UHGV virus genome: UHGV-0372926
Strand: one strand, 5' to 3'
Length of the DNA: 41,206 nucleotides
Origin: a virus
A program made the position numbers and the translations under genes. This document shows, one piece after another, positions 7,271 to 34,463 of the stretch. The notes under the pieces are model-generated. The model had not been told where the DNA came from. It was given only the letters and a program-made list of their open reading frames with translations, and made no database searches. Each line of letters starts with the position of its first letter. Within the stretch, counting starts at the first letter, position 1.

Positions 7271-8320
7271 TTAAGCGCCTACGCCAGTTACCAGGAACGC
7301 GATCGGCACGTGTTTGCGCTCCACCACGCGGTTCCAGTTAGTGGCATTCGCCAGGTCCTGCCAGGAGGCCGAACGCGCGATAGTCTCGCTGCCGTTGCCG
7401 GTGATAACCGCACTGGTGAAGCTGTAACCCAACGGATGCAGCAGCCAGGTTTTACGGGTCCACAGGGTTTCGACGCCGCCGCCGTTGCCGCGGGACGCTT
7501 CGCGCTCATATTCCAGCGGATTGGTCGGGCTGCCTTCGCCGTAGCCGATCGCGCCATTGCCGAAAATGATGCTGATAAACTTACGGTCGTTGCCGGTGCC
7601 GACTACAGTCATGCTGTCATCCACTACCACACGGTAACCCTGGTAGGTGGCAAACATGGTGTTATTGTCGGCGTCACGCACAAAGTCAATAAGCTGTTGC
7701 TTGCGGGCCTGCGCATAAACGAAGCTGTGCATCGCAATAGCGCCGAGAACGTCACCGGACGCCCCCATCAAAGCGTCGCCCATGGTCTGGGTAGCGTCAA
7801 TGAATGCGCCGGCGTCAAAGCCCAAAGTTGCGGACACGTCGATAACCATATCGTCTTGGGTATGATAGGCGTCGGTAGCCGCACGGTTGTCGTTGTACAG
7901 ACCGAGTGCGGTTGCGATCAGACGACGCTGCGCCTGGCGCTGCCAGAAGTTGTCGAGACGATTCGCGACAGACTGCAGCGGGTTCTGGCTGGTCAGCTCA
8001 ACGGTAAGATCCGCCTGGCCGAAACCTTCGTTCAGGTACGCTACGCGCGCCATCATCTCACCGGTCTGGACATTACGCGGGGTCGCGATGTCCTGATAAA
8101 CGTCGTTCGAGTAGTTCGGCTCGATGGACGTATCGATCGCTTTCCAGAAAGGAATATTTGCGATGTTAGACGGGCCACGAGCGATCTCGGCAGCGTAGGG
8201 CGTTGGGGTTAAGATCCCGGATTCAAAGAACGCGGTTTTTTCTACCGGGTCTTCGGTCATATAGGACAGGATGACCGGTTCATTTCCGGTTACGATATCG
8301 CCGATAGTGGTAATAGCCAT
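7271..8320 (-). CDS. Major capsid protein
   Basis: 349 aa, immediately after the scaffold gene with stop/start coupling at 8320. The composition fits HK97-fold capsid proteins. Confidence 0.65.
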   Translation of the reverse strand: MAITTIGDIVTGNEPVILSYMTEDPVEKTAFFESGILTPTPYAAEIARGPSNIANIPFWKAIDTSIEPNYSNDVYQDIATPRNVQTGEMMARVAYLNEGFGQADLTVELTSQNPLQSVANRLDNFWQRQAQRRLIATALGLYNDNRAATDAYHTQDDMVIDVSATLGFDAGAFIDATQTMGDALMGASGDVLGAIAMHSFVYAQARKQQLIDFVRDADNNTMFATYQGYRVVVDDSMTVVGTGNDRKFISIIFGNGAIGYGEGSPTNPLEYEREASRGNGGGVETLWTRKTWLLHPLGYSFTSAVITGNGSETIARSASWQDLANATNWNRVVERKHVPIAFLVTGVGA

Positions 8321-9033
8321 TATTTTTTCCTCTGGGCCTCAAGTTGCCGTTTAAATTCGGCTGGATCTGATTTACTGAACGCGATGCGTTCAGCGTCGTT
8401 CATTTCACTTAACGTTTTAGCGGCCCCGCCGCCTCGATTACCGGAGGCCCCGCCACCGGATGCAGCACTCGCCTTTAACAAATGGCTGAATGCTTTGTGT
8501 TCCCGCAAATGTTTGCGAAATTGTTCTGGGTCAGTAGTAATGACGTTACCATTAGCATCAAGGTATTTGGTCACTACGTCTTCGCCATCGAATTCGGTTC
8601 GCACGAACGGCGCCAGGATCTCGACGGCTTCCGGAGTAATGAAGTCTCCGGCAAAGGCGCCGATAGCCGCTTTACGCTCACTGCCAAGCACCCGGGCCGC
8701 AAGCGAATTATACCGTGCGTCTTTCTCTGCTAATACGGGCTCGTACTGACTACGAATCGTCTTCTCGAATTCGTCCATTTTACCAGCGGATTTTAAAGCC
8801 TCCTGGTGTTCGCGCTGCCGTAGTTCCTCGGCCTCTTTGGCCCTGCGCGACGCCTCTTTACTCTCATTGAGAAGTGCGTCACGGTTAGCTTTAAGCCCGG
8901 CTACTTCTTTAGCGATCAGCTCATCGACTTCTGCCTGGGTGTAGGTCTTTGGCGCGTCGCCACCGCCGCCACCCTGCGATCCATCATCGTGCTCATCCTG
9001 GTACGCGAAAAGGAAAGACTGTAAAAAACGATG
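8320..9033 (-). CDS. Head scaffolding protein; start chosen at MHRFLQ... which has an AGGGGT RBS
   Basis: A Glu/Lys/Ala-rich coiled coil (...EELRQREHQEALKSAGKMDEFEK...) directly upstream of the capsid gene. Confidence 0.6.
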   Translation of the reverse strand, partial: HRFLQSFLFAYQDEHDDGSQGGGGGDAPKTYTQAEVDELIAKEVAGLKANRDALLNESKEASRRAKEAEELRQREHQEALKSAGKMDEFEKTIRSQYEPVLAEKDARYNSLAARVLGSERKAAIGAFAGDFITPEAVEILAPFVRTEFDGEDVVTKYLDANGNVITTDPEQFRKHLREHKAFSHLLKASAASGGGASGNRGGGAAKTLSEMNDAERIAFSKSDPAEFKRQLEAQRKK

Positions 9034-9138
9034 CATAGTACGTAGACCCCTGGTCTTTATGAATCCGGGCCACCCGGATTTACATACGCTAAATATACAG
9101 GGCAGCGCAAGTATTAACAATATATCTGCAAATGTTGG

Positions 9139-9167
9139 TTGCAATATGTATGAGGCAATATTATAGT
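9139..9167 (+). promoter_or_regulatory. Sigma70-like promoter: -35 TTGCAA (9139-9144), 17 nt spacer, -10 TATAGT (9162-9167); GTTGGTTGC at 9134-9142
   Basis: Nearly identical to the promoter at 33751-33784 (atgttggTTGCAAtat...atatTATAGTtag). Confidence 0.55.
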
Positions 9168-9198
9168 TAGGAAACCAACAACGAGAAGGGGTGTAATT

Positions 9199-9351
9199 AT
9201 GAACATAGCCACTAAATACCGAAAATCCGGAAAGGTTGACCTGCGCCGCTTGAGGCGGTGCGCGCGAAGATTGAAGGCCGCATATTTTAAGCTCGACTTA
9301 GGTCGCAACGAAAACTGGATAACGAAGGCTGAACGGAGATTCGACCGATGA
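9199..9351 (+). CDS. Small basic protein (50 aa), encoded antisense between Rz1 and the scaffold gene
   Basis: MNIATKYRKSGKVDLRRLRRCARRLKAAYFKLDLGRNENWITKAERRFDR, with a GAAGGGG RBS. It is below the 60-aa cutoff of the ORF track. Confidence 0.45.
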   Translation: MNIATKYRKSGKVDLRRLRRCARRLKAAYFKLDLGRNENWITKAERRFDR

Positions 9352-9488
9352 AACCAATGGCAAAGCGTAACCCGACGAAGTACCAGCAACGGCGCCGGGT
9401 ATTTCTGGTCTATCTTCCGGTAGCGTGGGTGGCTATAGCCTTCGTCTGCTGGGGCCTGGCCTGGCTGATAAAAAACGCCCCGTTATAG
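9348..9488 (+). CDS. Small tail-anchored membrane protein (46 aa)
   Basis: MKPMAKRNPTKYQQRRRVFLVYLPVAWVAIAFVCWGLAWLIKNAPL. Its start overlaps the previous stop in an ATGA arrangement, and the terminator hairpin follows. Confidence 0.45.
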   Translation: MKPMAKRNPTKYQQRRRVFLVYLPVAWVAIAFVCWGLAWLIKNAPL

Positions 9489-9495
9489 GGGCGTT
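9474..9495. terminator. Hairpin AACGCCCC-gttata-GGGGCGTT; followed by TTTTTTAT on the minus strand (after Rz1) and a weaker U-tract on the plus strand
   Basis: An 8-bp perfect stem. The Rz1 stop codon (9483-9485) lies in the loop. Confidence 0.6.
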
Positions 9496-9731
9496 GTTAC
9501 ATTCCGGATCCAGTCCTGCAGCTGGTACACCTGTAGCCTTAACTTTCTCCCGCAATCCATGTTCTGCACGTCCGCATTGAGATCCGCGTCACTGTCCTTT
9601 TCCGCCGGCTGAAACTGGCACGGCTTCGCCATCATAGCCGGGGATGGCGTTGGCGTTATCGATGGCGCGTTGTTTAATCCGCACCCGCTCATCGTCAAAA
9701 CTACAGCGCACACGATCAGGATTTTGCACAT
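9483..9731 (-). CDS. Rz1-like outer-membrane lipoprotein spanin (o-spanin)
   Basis: MCKILIVCAVVLTMSGCGLNN has a signal peptide plus an LTMSGC lipobox. The mature part is Pro-rich. Its start lies inside the Rz gene in another frame and it extends beyond the Rz stop. Confidence 0.7.
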   Translation of the reverse strand: MCKILIVCAVVLTMSGCGLNNAPSITPTPSPAMMAKPCQFQPAEKDSDADLNADVQNMDCGRKLRLQVYQLQDWIRNVTTPL

Positions 9732-10004: not shown

Positions 10005-10262
10005 GACTTCTCGCAAAATAAATGATACGATCAGCTTCGCTTTTGTGCGACGCCTCGCAAAGGCAGGCGCGCAACAAGCAATTGAAGTGATCGATTCAGC
10101 CCACCTCGTTATAACTCCTTGATTTTACTCACTTAATTTCGCCACTCGCAAACTAAAACGGCAGCAACCAACGAAATTAGCCTAAGTCCTTGATATTTAT
10201 ACTCGCAATTTGACTCGCAAAATTTTGCGAGTCTTGCGCGTCGCCGATACACGTAATTTATT
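10005..10262. repeat. Iteron-rich non-coding region A, homologous to region B (19890-20162)
   Basis: It shares the blocks ctcgcaaaa-atgatacgatca, gcgacgcc, gtgatcga and tactcgcaatttNNNtcgcaaaattttgcgagtcttgcg...acacgta..ttacgagtt with region B. It holds at least 7 copies of CTCGCAA/TTGCGAG and the palindrome cgcaaaattttgcg. Confidence 0.7.
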
Positions 10263-11310
10263 ACGAGTTCCCGGACAGGAATTTTGCAACGCGTTTATCG
10301 TTCTCCGCCATCTCGCGCAGGGTCAGCGGCCGGCCAAAGCCATCGACCGACGCAGCCCGGAATTCCTCTGCCGTCATACCGCTGTTACGGAAAATATTAC
10401 CCCTGACCGGGCCGAGCGCCTCATCCTGGAACCATGCCGGCTGCATCTGCAGGAATTCGTAGTATGACGTGTCGGCGTCTACCTGCGTGCCTCCGTCGGC
10501 CCCTCGGGCCGCCCGCTTCCCGCCGACGTCAAGGAAGTCGAAATCGCTGCTGATCACCGGCGCGGTGGTCGTCCTGCAGTTCGGATGCAGCGGCGGCAGC
10601 GGCCCCTTGCCGACATCGTAAACCTTGCCATGCGCCAGGTTCCGGCAAATCGACGAGGTGCGCTTGTCCAGGGTCACTACCAGCTCGTAGCCTTCCACGA
10701 TATCGTCGTTTTTCTGATATACGAGGTTTTTCGCTTCGGTCGATACATGGTTGATCGCGGTTCTAACCACCGTTGCCGCGTTGCGGTTTGACACGTCCGC
10801 CAGCCCGCCCGGGCCGACTACCTGGCGCACGATGTCGCGCGTCGTCATTCCCCGCACGAAGCCAGATTTAACGCCGGTCACCAGGCGGTTAATCTCGGTA
10901 TCCTGCCAGCTGGTTAGCATGTCCTGGAAGTCTACCGGCTTACCTTCCAGCTGCAGCGGATTGAACTTAATGGCGGACCAGACTTGCTCGGGCGACGGAG
11001 CGGTGAAACTGGCGTTGACGTTTCCGGACAGTGTGTCCGTCGTCCAGTTGGTCTCGTACTCGGCCAGCTTCTGCAGGTCCTGCTGTAAGCGTTCCTCCCA
11101 GCCGCTGGAGATTGCGTATAGGATGTCCTCCAGGTCCTTTAGCATGGCCTGCAGACGACCGCGGGTGCGGCTCTCGTCCCCGAAGGCCAGCACCTTCTGT
11201 TTTACCTCGTCGCGCATCTGCTGGATGAACGGCTCCAGCTCGTTCACCTCATGCGAGGCGTTACGCTGGAGCCAGATCTGGTGGCTAATAAAGGCCGTTA
11301 AGACACTCAT
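10261..11310 (-). CDS. Phage Mu F-like / SPP1 gp7-like minor head (head morphogenesis) protein
   Basis: 349 aa placed after the portal gene, as is typical for this family. Confidence 0.65.
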   Translation of the reverse strand: MSVLTAFISHQIWLQRNASHEVNELEPFIQQMRDEVKQKVLAFGDESRTRGRLQAMLKDLEDILYAISSGWEERLQQDLQKLAEYETNWTTDTLSGNVNASFTAPSPEQVWSAIKFNPLQLEGKPVDFQDMLTSWQDTEINRLVTGVKSGFVRGMTTRDIVRQVVGPGGLADVSNRNAATVVRTAINHVSTEAKNLVYQKNDDIVEGYELVVTLDKRTSSICRNLAHGKVYDVGKGPLPPLHPNCRTTTAPVISSDFDFLDVGGKRAARGADGGTQVDADTSYYEFLQMQPAWFQDEALGPVRGNIFRNSGMTAEEFRAASVDGFGRPLTLREMAENDKRVAKFLSGNS

Positions 11311-19488: not shown

Positions 19489-19662
19489 AGTATTTGCTCC
19501 TCTCGTTTCGGTCCTCTGAGTATATGTCTAAATCAATGTTGGTTGCAATACTGAACAGCAAAAATAAGGGTCGGCGTAACTGGTATGGTAGTCTACTAGC
19601 CTACTTGCGTGCGTGGGGCGCGGAATTCGCTAGGACTAATCTTAATAGCGACCACCAACCCG

Positions 19663-19842
19663 TTACTCTCTTTTGGTTGCTTTTCTCTTCGCAACCAATT
19701 TCGATTTACTAAGGCGTTTTGTCTCCCGGGATTTCATGCTGCTAATATATCGAGTTAACCAAACCTCGACACCCAATCCGCACTGTTCAGCCCTCTGTGA
19801 AATGTATTCGTATGCTTTGTCTGACACTGTTATTTGTTTCAT
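19663..19842 (-). CDS. Possible ribbon-helix-helix-like small DNA-binding protein (59 aa, below the ORF-track cutoff)
   Basis: MKQITVSDKAYEYISQRAEQCGLGVEVWLTRYISSMKSRETKRLSKSKLVAKRKATKRE has a beta-strand then helix pattern. The RBS is GAGG. The last codons overlap the TTGGTTGC/GCAACCAA inverted repeat. Confidence 0.3.
   Translation of the reverse strand: MKQITVSDKAYEYISQRAEQCGLGVEVWLTRYISSMKSRETKRLSKSKLVAKRKATKRE
19672..19709 (+). other. Inverted repeat TTGGTTGC-N10-GCAACCAA followed by TTTCGATTT, a hairpin built from two copies of the recurrent motif that could terminate plus-strand transcription
   Basis: An 8-bp perfect stem located 125 nt downstream of the motif copy at 19538-19546. Confidence 0.4.
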
Positions 19843-19889
19843 ATTCCCGCCTCTCGATACTCGCTGCCGTGATATTTACATTCTGGCTA

Positions 19890-20162
19890 TTGCAAACTCG
19901 CAAAAAATATGATACGATCACTGCGTTCTCTTGGCGACGCCCGCCAAAGGGCAGCTCGCCTGAGACGCAATAACGTGATCGACTCACTTTGCGAAACAAA
20001 ATCCCTCCATAAATCAATCACTTACCTACCGACTCGCAATCCATTTTTGCGAAAACCAACAAAAACACCCTAAGTCATTGAAAACGTTACTCGCAATTTC
20101 ATTCGCAAAATTTTGCGAGTCTTGCGAGTCGATTCGCATTACTCGCAACACGTATTATTTTA
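19890..20162. repeat. Iteron-rich non-coding region B, homologous to region A (10005-10262), abutting the 3' end of the primase-helicase gene
   Basis: At least 8 copies of (A/T)CTCGCAA or its complement, the palindrome cgcaaaattttgcg, and block-by-block similarity to region A. Confidence 0.7.
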
Positions 20163-26250: not shown

Positions 26251-26275
26251 CATCTGCAACCAACTAAATTAACGT
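26247..26275 (+). promoter_or_regulatory. Promoter-like: -35 TTGACA (26247-26252), 17 nt spacer carrying GCAACCAAC (26256-26264), weak -10 TAACGT
   Basis: Upstream of the SSB-like gene. Confidence 0.4.
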
Positions 26276-33750: not shown

Positions 33751-33784
33751 GTTGGTTGCAATATTAGCGGAGTCATATTATAGT
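33751..33784 (+). promoter_or_regulatory. Sigma70-like promoter: GTTGGTTGC (33751-33759), -35 TTGCAA (33756-33761), 17 nt spacer, -10 TATAGT (33779-33784)
   Basis: Near-identical to the 9139-9167 promoter. It starts 3 nt after the Dam stop and gives a leader of about 190 nt. Confidence 0.55.
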
Positions 33785-33978
33785 TAGTTCATAGGGCGGC
33801 GGCAGGATGCAGCCGGAGAGGAGCAACGCAGGGGCTTGATCGTAGTGTCAGGATTCCCAACCGTGAGGCCGAACATTGGACACTCGCCGCAAGGCAGAAC
33901 GCTTACCAATGACATCGAACCGAGGCTACCGACGAAGCACGACGCCCTACCTAATGACGACTTTCAGGAGCAAACACA

Positions 33979-34296
33979 ATGAAACGTATTACCGCAATCG
34001 CAATCACGCTGGCCGCCGTCCTGGGCTGCTCGTATGTCGGGTCCGCCGCTGCCGTCACTCCGGTTGAAATGTGCCAGGAGCTGGCCGAAATGGGTGGCGT
34101 TATTGTCGATGCCCGGAATCGCGGCGACTCGCTGGAAAACGTAACCAGCATTATCAACGGCAGCGATATGACCCCGAGCCTTAAATCCGGCATGACAAGC
34201 ATCGCCGTTACGATCTACAGTAATCCGTCATTGAGACGCGCCGATGTCGTGGCGTATGGGTTTAAAGGTTGTATTGACGGAATGTCGGAGGAATAG
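33979..34296 (+). CDS. Lipoprotein (signal peptide plus lipobox LGC)
   Basis: MKRITAIAITLAAVLGCSYVGSAAAV... 105 aa. Confidence 0.55.
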   Translation: MKRITAIAITLAAVLGCSYVGSAAAVTPVEMCQELAEMGGVIVDARNRGDSLENVTSIINGSDMTPSLKSGMTSIAVTIYSNPSLRRADVVAYGFKGCIDGMSEE

Positions 34297-34298
34297 AA

Positions 34299-34463
34299 AT
34301 GGCTGAAACTGAATACACTTATTTACAGTGCGAGTTTTGCTGGTATAAGTGGAAAGTACCTTACAGTGCTGATAATGATTTTAAATGCCCCGAATGCGGA
34401 GACGTTGGCCTGAAAAAGATAATTCTACAGTCAACAGAAGACCCGGAATGGTTTAATAATTGA
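34299..34463 (+). CDS. Small zinc-ribbon protein (54 aa), AT-rich
   Basis: MAETEYTYLQCEFCWYKWKVPYSADNDFKCPECGDVGLKKIILQSTEDPEWFNN. GC content is about 38% against a background of about 55%. Confidence 0.4.
   Translation: MAETEYTYLQCEFCWYKWKVPYSADNDFKCPECGDVGLKKIILQSTEDPEWFNN

Follow-up and report, generated by a model that had tools for sequence, protein, structure and literature searches.

Phage morons are independent units with their own promoter and terminator that lie between late genes, and HK97 gene 15 is said to be of this type, reportedly described by Juhala and colleagues in 2000. The signature of moron-type accessory hot spots has been reviewed (PMC3594210). We analyzed the virus genome UHGV-0372926, a stretch of 41,206 nucleotides referred to here as the window, and describe a segment at 9120-9500 that carries two small plus-strand genes, ORF1 and ORF2, between the minus-strand genes for the spanin Rz1 and the head scaffold. 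An earlier note, made from the sequence of the window, had recognized this segment as a cassette bounded by a promoter and a terminator. The explanation that we favor, with moderate confidence, is that the segment is a small moron-like accessory transcription unit, housed in a cargo slot that has the Rz/Rz1 terminator on one side and the scaffold promoter on the other, and that it specifies two independent host-directed effectors.

The unit resembles morons such as HK97 gene 15 in its apparent independence, with a putative promoter of its own and a candidate terminator at its end, between late genes, in its presence or absence among relatives and in its horizontal spread. ORF2 is also predicted to be a small inner-membrane product, and by prediction only it shares this localization with the exclusion proteins HK97 gp15, T4 Imm and P22 Sie. 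The unit differs from morons in that the phage that carries it looks virulent, its GC content is not deviant, it is antisense to the late genes and it has its terminator in common with a neighbor. Neither ORF1 nor ORF2 is related in sequence to HK97 gp15.

Phage T5 carries its llp gene in the structural region, oriented against the neighboring gene. Early exclusion proteins of virulent phages, T5 Llp among them, provide a precedent for the expression of small envelope proteins (PMC9586334; Decker et al. 1994 cited there). Llp and, by prediction, ORF2 are both small envelope-targeted proteins of a virulent siphophage with their own host-type promoter. Llp is however an outer-membrane lipoprotein with a known receptor target, whereas ORF2 is no lipoprotein and has almost no periplasmic part. 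Llp finds a closer analogue in a predicted lipoprotein at 33979-34296 of the window than in ORF2.

The type I toxin-antitoxin system par/Fst of pAD1 has convergent transcripts with a common bidirectional terminator. It shares with our locus a hydrophobic peptide of <50 aa and convergent RNAs, predicted in our case, that are complementary at the common terminator hairpin. In contrast to par/Fst, the convergent partner here would be the protein-coding spanin mRNA and not a dedicated antisense RNA, and ORF2 has a long, conserved, basic cytoplasmic domain. Finally, Drulisvirus podophages have a variable accessory slot before the DNA polymerase gene. ORF1 occupies it in 11 of about 252 records with the same helicase-polymerase region, and others have an HNH endonuclease or small ORFs there. 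Unlike in the window, ORF1 in that slot has the same orientation as the replication operon, within which it is translationally coupled, and it lacks its own promoter and terminator.

ORF1 and ORF2 have the hallmarks of protein-coding genes

The window is an approximately complete 41-kb genome of a Guernseyvirinae-like Klebsiella siphophage. Its identity across 9050-9520 is 95% with Klebsiella phage 37P2 and 80% with VLCpiS11a, and these two phages together with metagenomic phage contigs made up the set of loci for comparison. As the earlier note had stated, the segment holds two small, coupled plus-strand ORFs and a ribosome-binding site. The end of ORF1 and the start of ORF2 have the ATGA at 9348-9351 in common, and a Shine-Dalgarno sequence precedes each ORF (Table 1). 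A properly spaced Shine-Dalgarno sequence is kept in all divergent leader and junction variants. Where ORF2 stands alone or follows a different gene, ORF0 (see below), the Shine-Dalgarno sequence is a different one and its spacing is still correct.

Ratios of nonsynonymous to synonymous substitution (dN/dS, Nei-Gojobori) were calculated for eight related loci, giving 28 pairs per ORF. They ranged from 0.07 to 0.35 for ORF1, for which synonymous divergence saturates, and from 0.05 to 0.29 for ORF2. Third codon positions hold most of the substitutions in both ORFs: changes at positions 1/2/3 between the window and VLCpiS11a number 13/11/28 in ORF1 and 2/2/13 in ORF2. With dN/dS well below 1 and this third-position bias, the protein-level conservation in relatives on which the earlier note had made its two genes depend is present. 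The note's statement that the segment has no plausible minus-strand gene was also borne out, as the 91-aa minus-strand ORF (9114..9389), considered as a gene and rejected, carries 3-5 stops in relatives. The predicted plus-strand transcript has no unusual fold (minimum free energy z = -0.25) and no Rfam match.

Both ORFs are very short, and the annotations of the closest relatives give neither of them in VLCpiS11a and only ORF2 in 37P2, as would be expected of chance open frames in a regulatory intergenic spacer. Such an origin is nevertheless extremely improbable against the low dN/dS, the third-position bias, the conserved Shine-Dalgarno sites and the 64-66% amino-acid identity of ORF1 to proteins in an unrelated phage family. 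On this comparative evidence, ORF1 and ORF2 are real protein genes.

A conserved predicted promoter and a hairpin delimit the unit

The earlier note had placed a strong sigma70-type promoter upstream of ORF1. The site and its conservation were confirmed in 11 loci. The -35 hexamer TTGCAA is kept in 10 of them and reads TTGCAG in the remaining one, the -10 hexamer is TATAGT, TATATT, TATGAT or TACAGT, and the spacer is invariably 17 nt, its middle drifting in sequence. The word strong could not be sustained. A consensus promoter scan was not significant alone (6 sites vs 3.3 +/- 1.7 expected in 5 kb). Terminator-like sites found by scan numbered 4 vs 6.0 expected. The case therefore rests on comparison with relatives. 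On the other strand, a promoter-like site for the scaffold and capsid genes has invariant hexamers and a variable spacer center in the same 11 loci. The cassette and scaffold promoters stand back-to-back in a nearly invariant block of 140 bp.

At its other end the unit runs into a GC-rich hairpin that would serve the convergent ORF2 and Rz1 transcripts. The fold is -16.3 kcal/mol (z -3.9) on the plus strand and -14.9 kcal/mol (z -3.3) on the minus strand, and the sequence is conserved across all clade loci. ORF2 and Rz1 overlap by 6 nt, both stop codons lie in the hairpin loop (9486-9488 for ORF2, 9483-9485 for Rz1) and both proteins end in Pro-Leu. A canonical U-run is found on the minus (Rz1) side only; the plus-strand tail is GUUACAUU, which is weak. 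Of the claim that this hairpin ends the unit and terminates Rz1 too, the hairpin and the Rz1-side U-run thus stood, and efficient plus-strand termination did not. Plus-strand termination here is plausible, yet weaker than the note had suggested.

The segment had also been described as embedded in the late operon, and this description had to be given up. Because the Rz/Rz1 terminator lies on one side and a separate conserved scaffold promoter-like site on the other, the unit is located between two late transcription units and not inside one operon. A scan found no separate antisense promoter within 9199-9488, and the overlap with the Rz1 mRNA is confined to the 3' hairpin.

A modular cargo slot between Rz1 and the scaffold gene

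We surveyed the site in 55 related IMG/VR loci with both a scaffold and an Rz1 match. The gap between the two genes is only 75-87 nt in 43 of them, an empty slot. In the other 12 it is 313-1152 nt and holds cargo, whose ORFs are always antisense to the late genes. The cargos include FSL SP-031 gp39 (phrog_20712), a Zn-finger protein (phrog_1934), a multi-pass membrane protein, a Dam-like methyltransferase, a PAPS reductase and several unknowns.

Five architectures are framed by one promoter and terminator. These are ORF2 alone, with its own AAGGAGG (L007-9); ORF1 and ORF2 (the window, 37P2, VLCpiS11a and L010-14); a 75-aa ORF0 (phrog_1585) and ORF2 (L018); ORF0, ORF1 and ORF2 (L015 and L016); and a 283-aa PAPS reductase (phrog_424) and ORF2 (L068). 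ORF2 is the last gene in every architecture, running into the hairpin, in 16 of 16 clade loci that have this promoter and terminator, whereas some members of the clade have ORF1 and others lack it. Conservation of the cassette in related phages, which the earlier note had proposed to examine, is seen in that the 16 clade loci share promoter, ORF2 and terminator. Its suggestion of a moron or accessory character was likewise upheld: relatives carry either the unit or the short gap, and other phages have other antisense cargo at the site. Judged by this comparison, the site is a recombination-prone accessory cargo slot, or hot spot.

The survey also bears on a reading in which the main function lies at the level of RNA or transcription. 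Convergent transcription and the common hairpin would insulate or tune the Rz/Rz1 and scaffold/capsid units, in a manner like type I toxin-antitoxin systems by virtue of the 3' overlap, and the ORFs would be secondary. The cassette and Rz1 mRNAs would indeed be complementary across the hairpin, and the promoter stands back-to-back with that of the scaffold in the nearly invariant block. This reading does not account for the purifying selection on the amino acids of both ORFs or for a Shine-Dalgarno sequence in every architecture. Synonymous divergence in ORF2 equals that of its neighbors, so that no extra nucleotide constraint relative to Rz/Rz1 was detected, and neither the fold z-score nor Rfam gave a structured-RNA signal. 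Moreover 43 of the 55 relatives have no unit at the site at all, and the cargo content varies freely. We consider a primary role at the RNA level quite improbable.

ORF1 and its spread among Klebsiella phages

ORF1 is strongly basic (pI 11.4, 17 K/R). An AlphaFold2 monomer model is an amphipathic helix-loop-helix of low confidence (pLDDT 63), with which Foldseek returned 0 hits in PDB. Homologs with 64-66% identity over the full length occur in 11 records of Drulisvirus (Autographiviridae) Klebsiella podophages. There ORF1 overlaps its two neighbors, a small ORF on one side and the DNA polymerase gene on the other, and ORF2 is missing. The N-terminal half, TKYR.SG..DLRRLRRCARRL, is invariant, podophages included, and divergence is concentrated in the C-terminal half. 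A large protein search yielded 7 clusters; when a profile was searched against 1.84 billion representatives, a single cluster (50%-identity) came back.

Synonymous and nonsynonymous differences (pS and pN) from locus L012 are 0.61 and 0.26 for ORF1, vs 0.07-0.13 and 0.01-0.02 for the flanking genes. By these measures the history of ORF1 is separate from that of its neighbors. The distribution further suggests that ORF1 is an optional insert spreading between unrelated Klebsiella phage families, and that its C-terminal half is exchangeable. Binding of nucleic acid or of a host protein is the most likely role of this small protein.

One regulator of this kind was considered specifically, a small DNA-binding protein, for example of the ribbon-helix-helix (RHH) type, acting on the phage's promoters that bear the motif GTTGGTTGC. 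ORF1 has the size and charge expected, its predicted helix-loop-helix core contains an invariant Gly followed by K/R and T/N (G-x-S/T/N-like), and the gene adjoins a motif-bearing promoter. However, comparison by hhalign with aligned sequences of eight RHH proteins, entered by hand, returned a probability of only 0.14%, Pfam gave no match to an RHH family, and the RHH reading of ORF1 was set aside as unsupported. The distributions of motif and ORF1 do not match either, and ORF1 was rejected as a GTTGGTTGC-binding regulator: the motif is present without ORF1 in L007, L018 and L068, and it is absent from the ~5-kb Drulisvirus stretches with ORF1 (L004 and L005). A regulatory role of this type is very unlikely.

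ORF2, a predicted membrane peptide

ORF2 has 8 K/R, 7 of them within the first 17 residues, followed by a hydrophobic stretch (Kyte-Doolittle maximum over 19 residues of 2.18, at residues 18-36). AlphaFold2 gave a single helix at residues 9-43 (pLDDT 81), uninformative past membrane anchoring. ORF2 is predicted to be a bitopic inner-membrane peptide, with its first 17 aa as a basic cytoplasmic N-terminus, a transmembrane (TM) helix at ~18-41 and 5 aa outside. The N-in orientation follows from the positive-inside rule, and the functional surface would therefore most likely be the 17-residue cytoplasmic peptide at the membrane. The basic N-terminus, MKPMAKRNPTKY..RRR, is invariant. The hydrophobic helix is almost wholly replaced in the divergent L007 allele, and the terminator sequence sets the last residues, KNAPL. 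Three metagenomic alleles (P0010, P0013 and P0008) read through the hairpin (64 and 78 aa) or have an internal 8-residue duplication in the TM segment, which could stem from indels or from misassembly at the terminator.

A large protein search for ORF2 yielded 9 clusters, to which a profile re-search added none. ORF2 divergence tracks that of Rz/Rz1 (vs L012, pS = 0.12 for ORF2 and 0.13 for Rz1). ORF2 is the resident slot gene of the clade, and our leading guess for its role is exclusion or membrane-level takeover.

A different role would be in lysis timing, with ORF2 as a spanin-associated membrane factor, such as a modulator of the holin or of Rz/Rz1, that is kept beside the spanins for this reason. 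ORF2 always adjoins and overlaps Rz1 and co-diverges with it, it is predicted to be a small bitopic inner-membrane peptide, and the slot of L037 holds a multi-pass membrane protein with a weak match to a lysis-category PHROG. The gene is however on the opposite strand with a promoter of its own, and two holins and an endolysin form a complete cassette ~7 kb away. Most relatives with homologous spanins carry no gene in the slot. In addition, ORF2 has only 5 periplasmic residues, and no lysis match, holin or antiholin included, was found for it in PHROG, Pfam or NCBIfam. We regard a lysis function as unlikely.

The earlier note had compared the two genes with toxin-like, Kil-like or superinfection-exclusion modules, and they could accordingly form one two-component module: a toxin and its modulator, a Kil-like pair or a two-part exclusion system. 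The ATGA coupling and the predicted co-transcription in 10 loci are as expected of such a pair, and a small hydrophobic peptide beside a basic protein resembles some toxin modules. But ORF2 occurs without ORF1 in L007-9, L018 and L068, and ORF1 without ORF2 in the 11 Drulisvirus records. ORF2 is coupled likewise to any preceding gene, the PAPS reductase included, and the divergence of the two ORFs is discordant. Both proteins are also strongly basic, which makes an electrostatic partnership unlikely. Separable occurrence and discordant divergence therefore argue against a toxin-antitoxin, Kil-type or other obligate pair, to which we assign a low probability, and this part of the note's comparison was not retained.

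Genomic setting

The minus-strand order around the segment is portal, Mu-F-like head morphogenesis gene, Rz, Rz1, the ORF1/ORF2 segment, scaffold and major capsid protein (Table 1). The capsid and scaffold genes match also those of Kagunavirus, Jerseyvirus and Cornellvirus phages. A virulent lifestyle is probable for this phage, because neither an integrase nor a repressor is annotated in the closest complete relative.

Table 1. Coordinates of the ORF1/ORF2 unit and of neighboring features in the window.
Feature	Position	Strand	Remarks
Major capsid protein	7271-8320	-	
Head scaffolding gene	8320..9036	-	leader 9037-9091 with conserved hairpins
Scaffold/capsid promoter-like site, TTGTTA-17-TATATT	9120..9092	-	sigma70-like; divergent from cassette promoter
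Motif GTTGGTTGC	9134..9142	+	clade-specific; overlaps -35 of cassette promoter
Cassette promoter (predicted), TTGCAA-17-TATAGT	9139..9167	+	sigma70-like; 9/12 consensus positions
Shine-Dalgarno of ORF1, GAAGGGG	9185-9191	+	7 nt upstream of ATG
ORF1	9199..9351	+	50 aa
Shine-Dalgarno of ORF2, GGAG	9335-9338	+	9 nt upstream of ATG, within 3' end of ORF1
ORF2	9348..9488	+	46 aa
GC-rich hairpin	9474..9495	both	8 bp, 6 GC pairs; would serve convergent ORF2 and Rz1 transcripts
Rz1-type outer-membrane spanin lipoprotein	9483..9731	-	annotated spanin in relatives
Rz	9589 to about 9980	-	
Mu-F-like head morphogenesis gene	10261-11310	-	

Several features of the neighboring genes were observed in passing. 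The leader of the scaffold mRNA contains two hairpins, including AAUCCGGGUGGCCCGGAUU (-20.2 kcal/mol, z = -2.3). Its sequence is near-invariant across 11 loci, the coding regions of which differ by up to about 20%. The head module (7271-9036) is mosaic with respect to L001, L002, L007, L013 and L014. Relatives with a near-identical cassette and spanins have another type of scaffold and capsid, with a Gp13-like major capsid protein of 322 aa vs 349 aa here. Scaffold pS is about 0.75 between the two head-module types, and the conserved promoter block lies at the junction. In relative L011 the Mu-F-like head morphogenesis gene (1130-2992) is 620 aa long and has an intein (PF14890).

Copies of the promoter motif elsewhere in the genome

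The motif GTTGGTTGC occurs in 9 exact copies in the window vs about 0.3 expected, at 2498, 9134, 19538, 30192 and 33751 on the plus strand and at 26264, 22949, 16235 and 10172 on the minus strand. All are intergenic with A/T-rich bases upstream, and VLCpiS11a has 10 copies at matching places. The motif was absent from Kagunavirus- and Jerseyvirus-like loci, except for single copies in L024 and L027, and from two Drulisvirus loci. Its place relative to the sigma70 hexamers is variable: over the -35, in the spacer, upstream, or just before the ribosome-binding site. Because of this variable position, it looks like a candidate binding site for a clade-specific factor.

At 33751-34463 there is a near-twin of the cassette promoter, GTTGGTTGCAATAT-N11-ATATTATAGTTAG. 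The unit that it would serve specifies a 105-aa predicted lipoprotein (LGC lipobox, phrog_2315) and a 54-aa Zn-ribbon protein, and converges on the tail-fibre gene. Receptor masking or exclusion is a candidate role of the lipoprotein. A second antisense unit within the late (tail) genes, at 2498-2798, also has a motif-bearing promoter. Its coding region (2550-2798) gives a product of 82 aa with an N-terminal TM segment, for which YebO-like PF13974 was just sub-threshold (26.4 vs 27 bits), and which is annotated as hypothetical in VLCpiS11a. The near-twin promoter with its predicted lipoprotein and the antisense membrane-protein unit suggest that the phage may express several small envelope proteins from this promoter type.

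Two further observations concern repeats and a gap. The commonest 9-mer of the window is CGCTGCCGT/ACGGCAGCG, with 17 copies on both strands, including those at 2012, 7387, 8813, 12702, 16931, 17334, 22307, 34047 and 40970. Most of the copies checked are intragenic, and flanks differ between copies. A gene-poor gap of 670 nt (19489-20159) lies between two minus-strand genes, before the helicase-primase gene. It contains one exact copy and two near-copies of GTTGGTTGC in both orientations, with two further near-copies just inside the helicase-primase gene. VLCpiS11a has an unannotated 556-nt gap at the same place. The gap could be an origin or a regulatory region.

Discussion

We propose that the host sigma70 RNA polymerase would initiate at the cassette promoter, back-to-back with the scaffold promoter, and produce a bicistronic mRNA of roughly 325 nt. 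ORF1 would be translated via its own Shine-Dalgarno sequence, and ORF2 via the internal Shine-Dalgarno sequence plus ATGA coupling. Transcription would end at the hairpin, where Rz1 is terminated too, and would probably do so incompletely. Both proteins would act on the infected host, in takeover, competitor-phage exclusion or counter-defence. It is most likely that both products are host-directed, rather than serving virion assembly or the regulation of neighboring genes.

Several observations weigh against this explanation. Neither protein could be identified by a match to a family, structure or fold. Searches of PHROGs, Pfam, NCBIfam and PADLOC with ORF1 and ORF2 gave sub-threshold noise only, namely DUF6284 (E=0.05), phrog_502 (E=2.1) and SepX/GlpR (17 bits vs a cutoff of 160), and PDB sequence profiles likewise gave only noise. 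The large protein collections searched held no distant relatives with known function, and no paper describing ORF1 or ORF2 was found in the literature. Toxic proteins of Drulisvirus fHe-Kpn01 (69, 182 and 146 aa) were considered and rejected as different genes; fHe-Kpn01 is without ORF1. The label of host-directed effectors comes from context only. GC content, 50.3% for ORF1 and 55.3% for ORF2, is near the genome average of 55.1% (flanks 53-54%), so that the compositional hallmark of a moron is weak, and in an apparently virulent phage the classical moron rationale of expression from the prophage is probably inapplicable. Lastly, ORF2 is always physically fused to the Rz1 terminator, and its constancy could reflect position and not selection on its own function. 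The dN/dS values and the retained Shine-Dalgarno sites argue against position alone.

A more detailed version of a host-directed unit can be formulated, which we put forward only tentatively. ORF1 would be a Klebsiella-specific host-takeover or counter-defence effector, an arginine-rich helical protein exchanged among unrelated families of virulent phages, whose invariant N-terminal half binds a conserved nucleic acid or protein of the host and whose mosaic, fast-changing C-terminal half tracks a variable host partner. ORF2 would be a separate membrane effector acting via its 17-residue peptide, and the slot would be a fixed expression platform for swapped cargo.

The moron-like explanation does not overturn current knowledge, as phage genomes are expected to harbor small accessory units in hot spots. 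If it is true, two previously unclassified small protein families, with no significant PHROG, Pfam, NCBIfam or PDB match, are real genes, and there is an annotation gap in the closest relatives, ORF1 being annotated in neither and ORF2 in one. The locus forms a natural series that begins with the empty slot, continues with ORF2 alone and reaches ORF2 plus one or two cargo genes, and this series suits tests of how accessory genes are slotted into virulent phages. ORF1 would be a rare case of a tiny gene common to a siphophage and podophages of one host genus. Such sharing across families often marks host-specific takeover or anti-defence functions, and that of ORF1 would be relevant to the choice and engineering of Klebsiella therapeutic phages.

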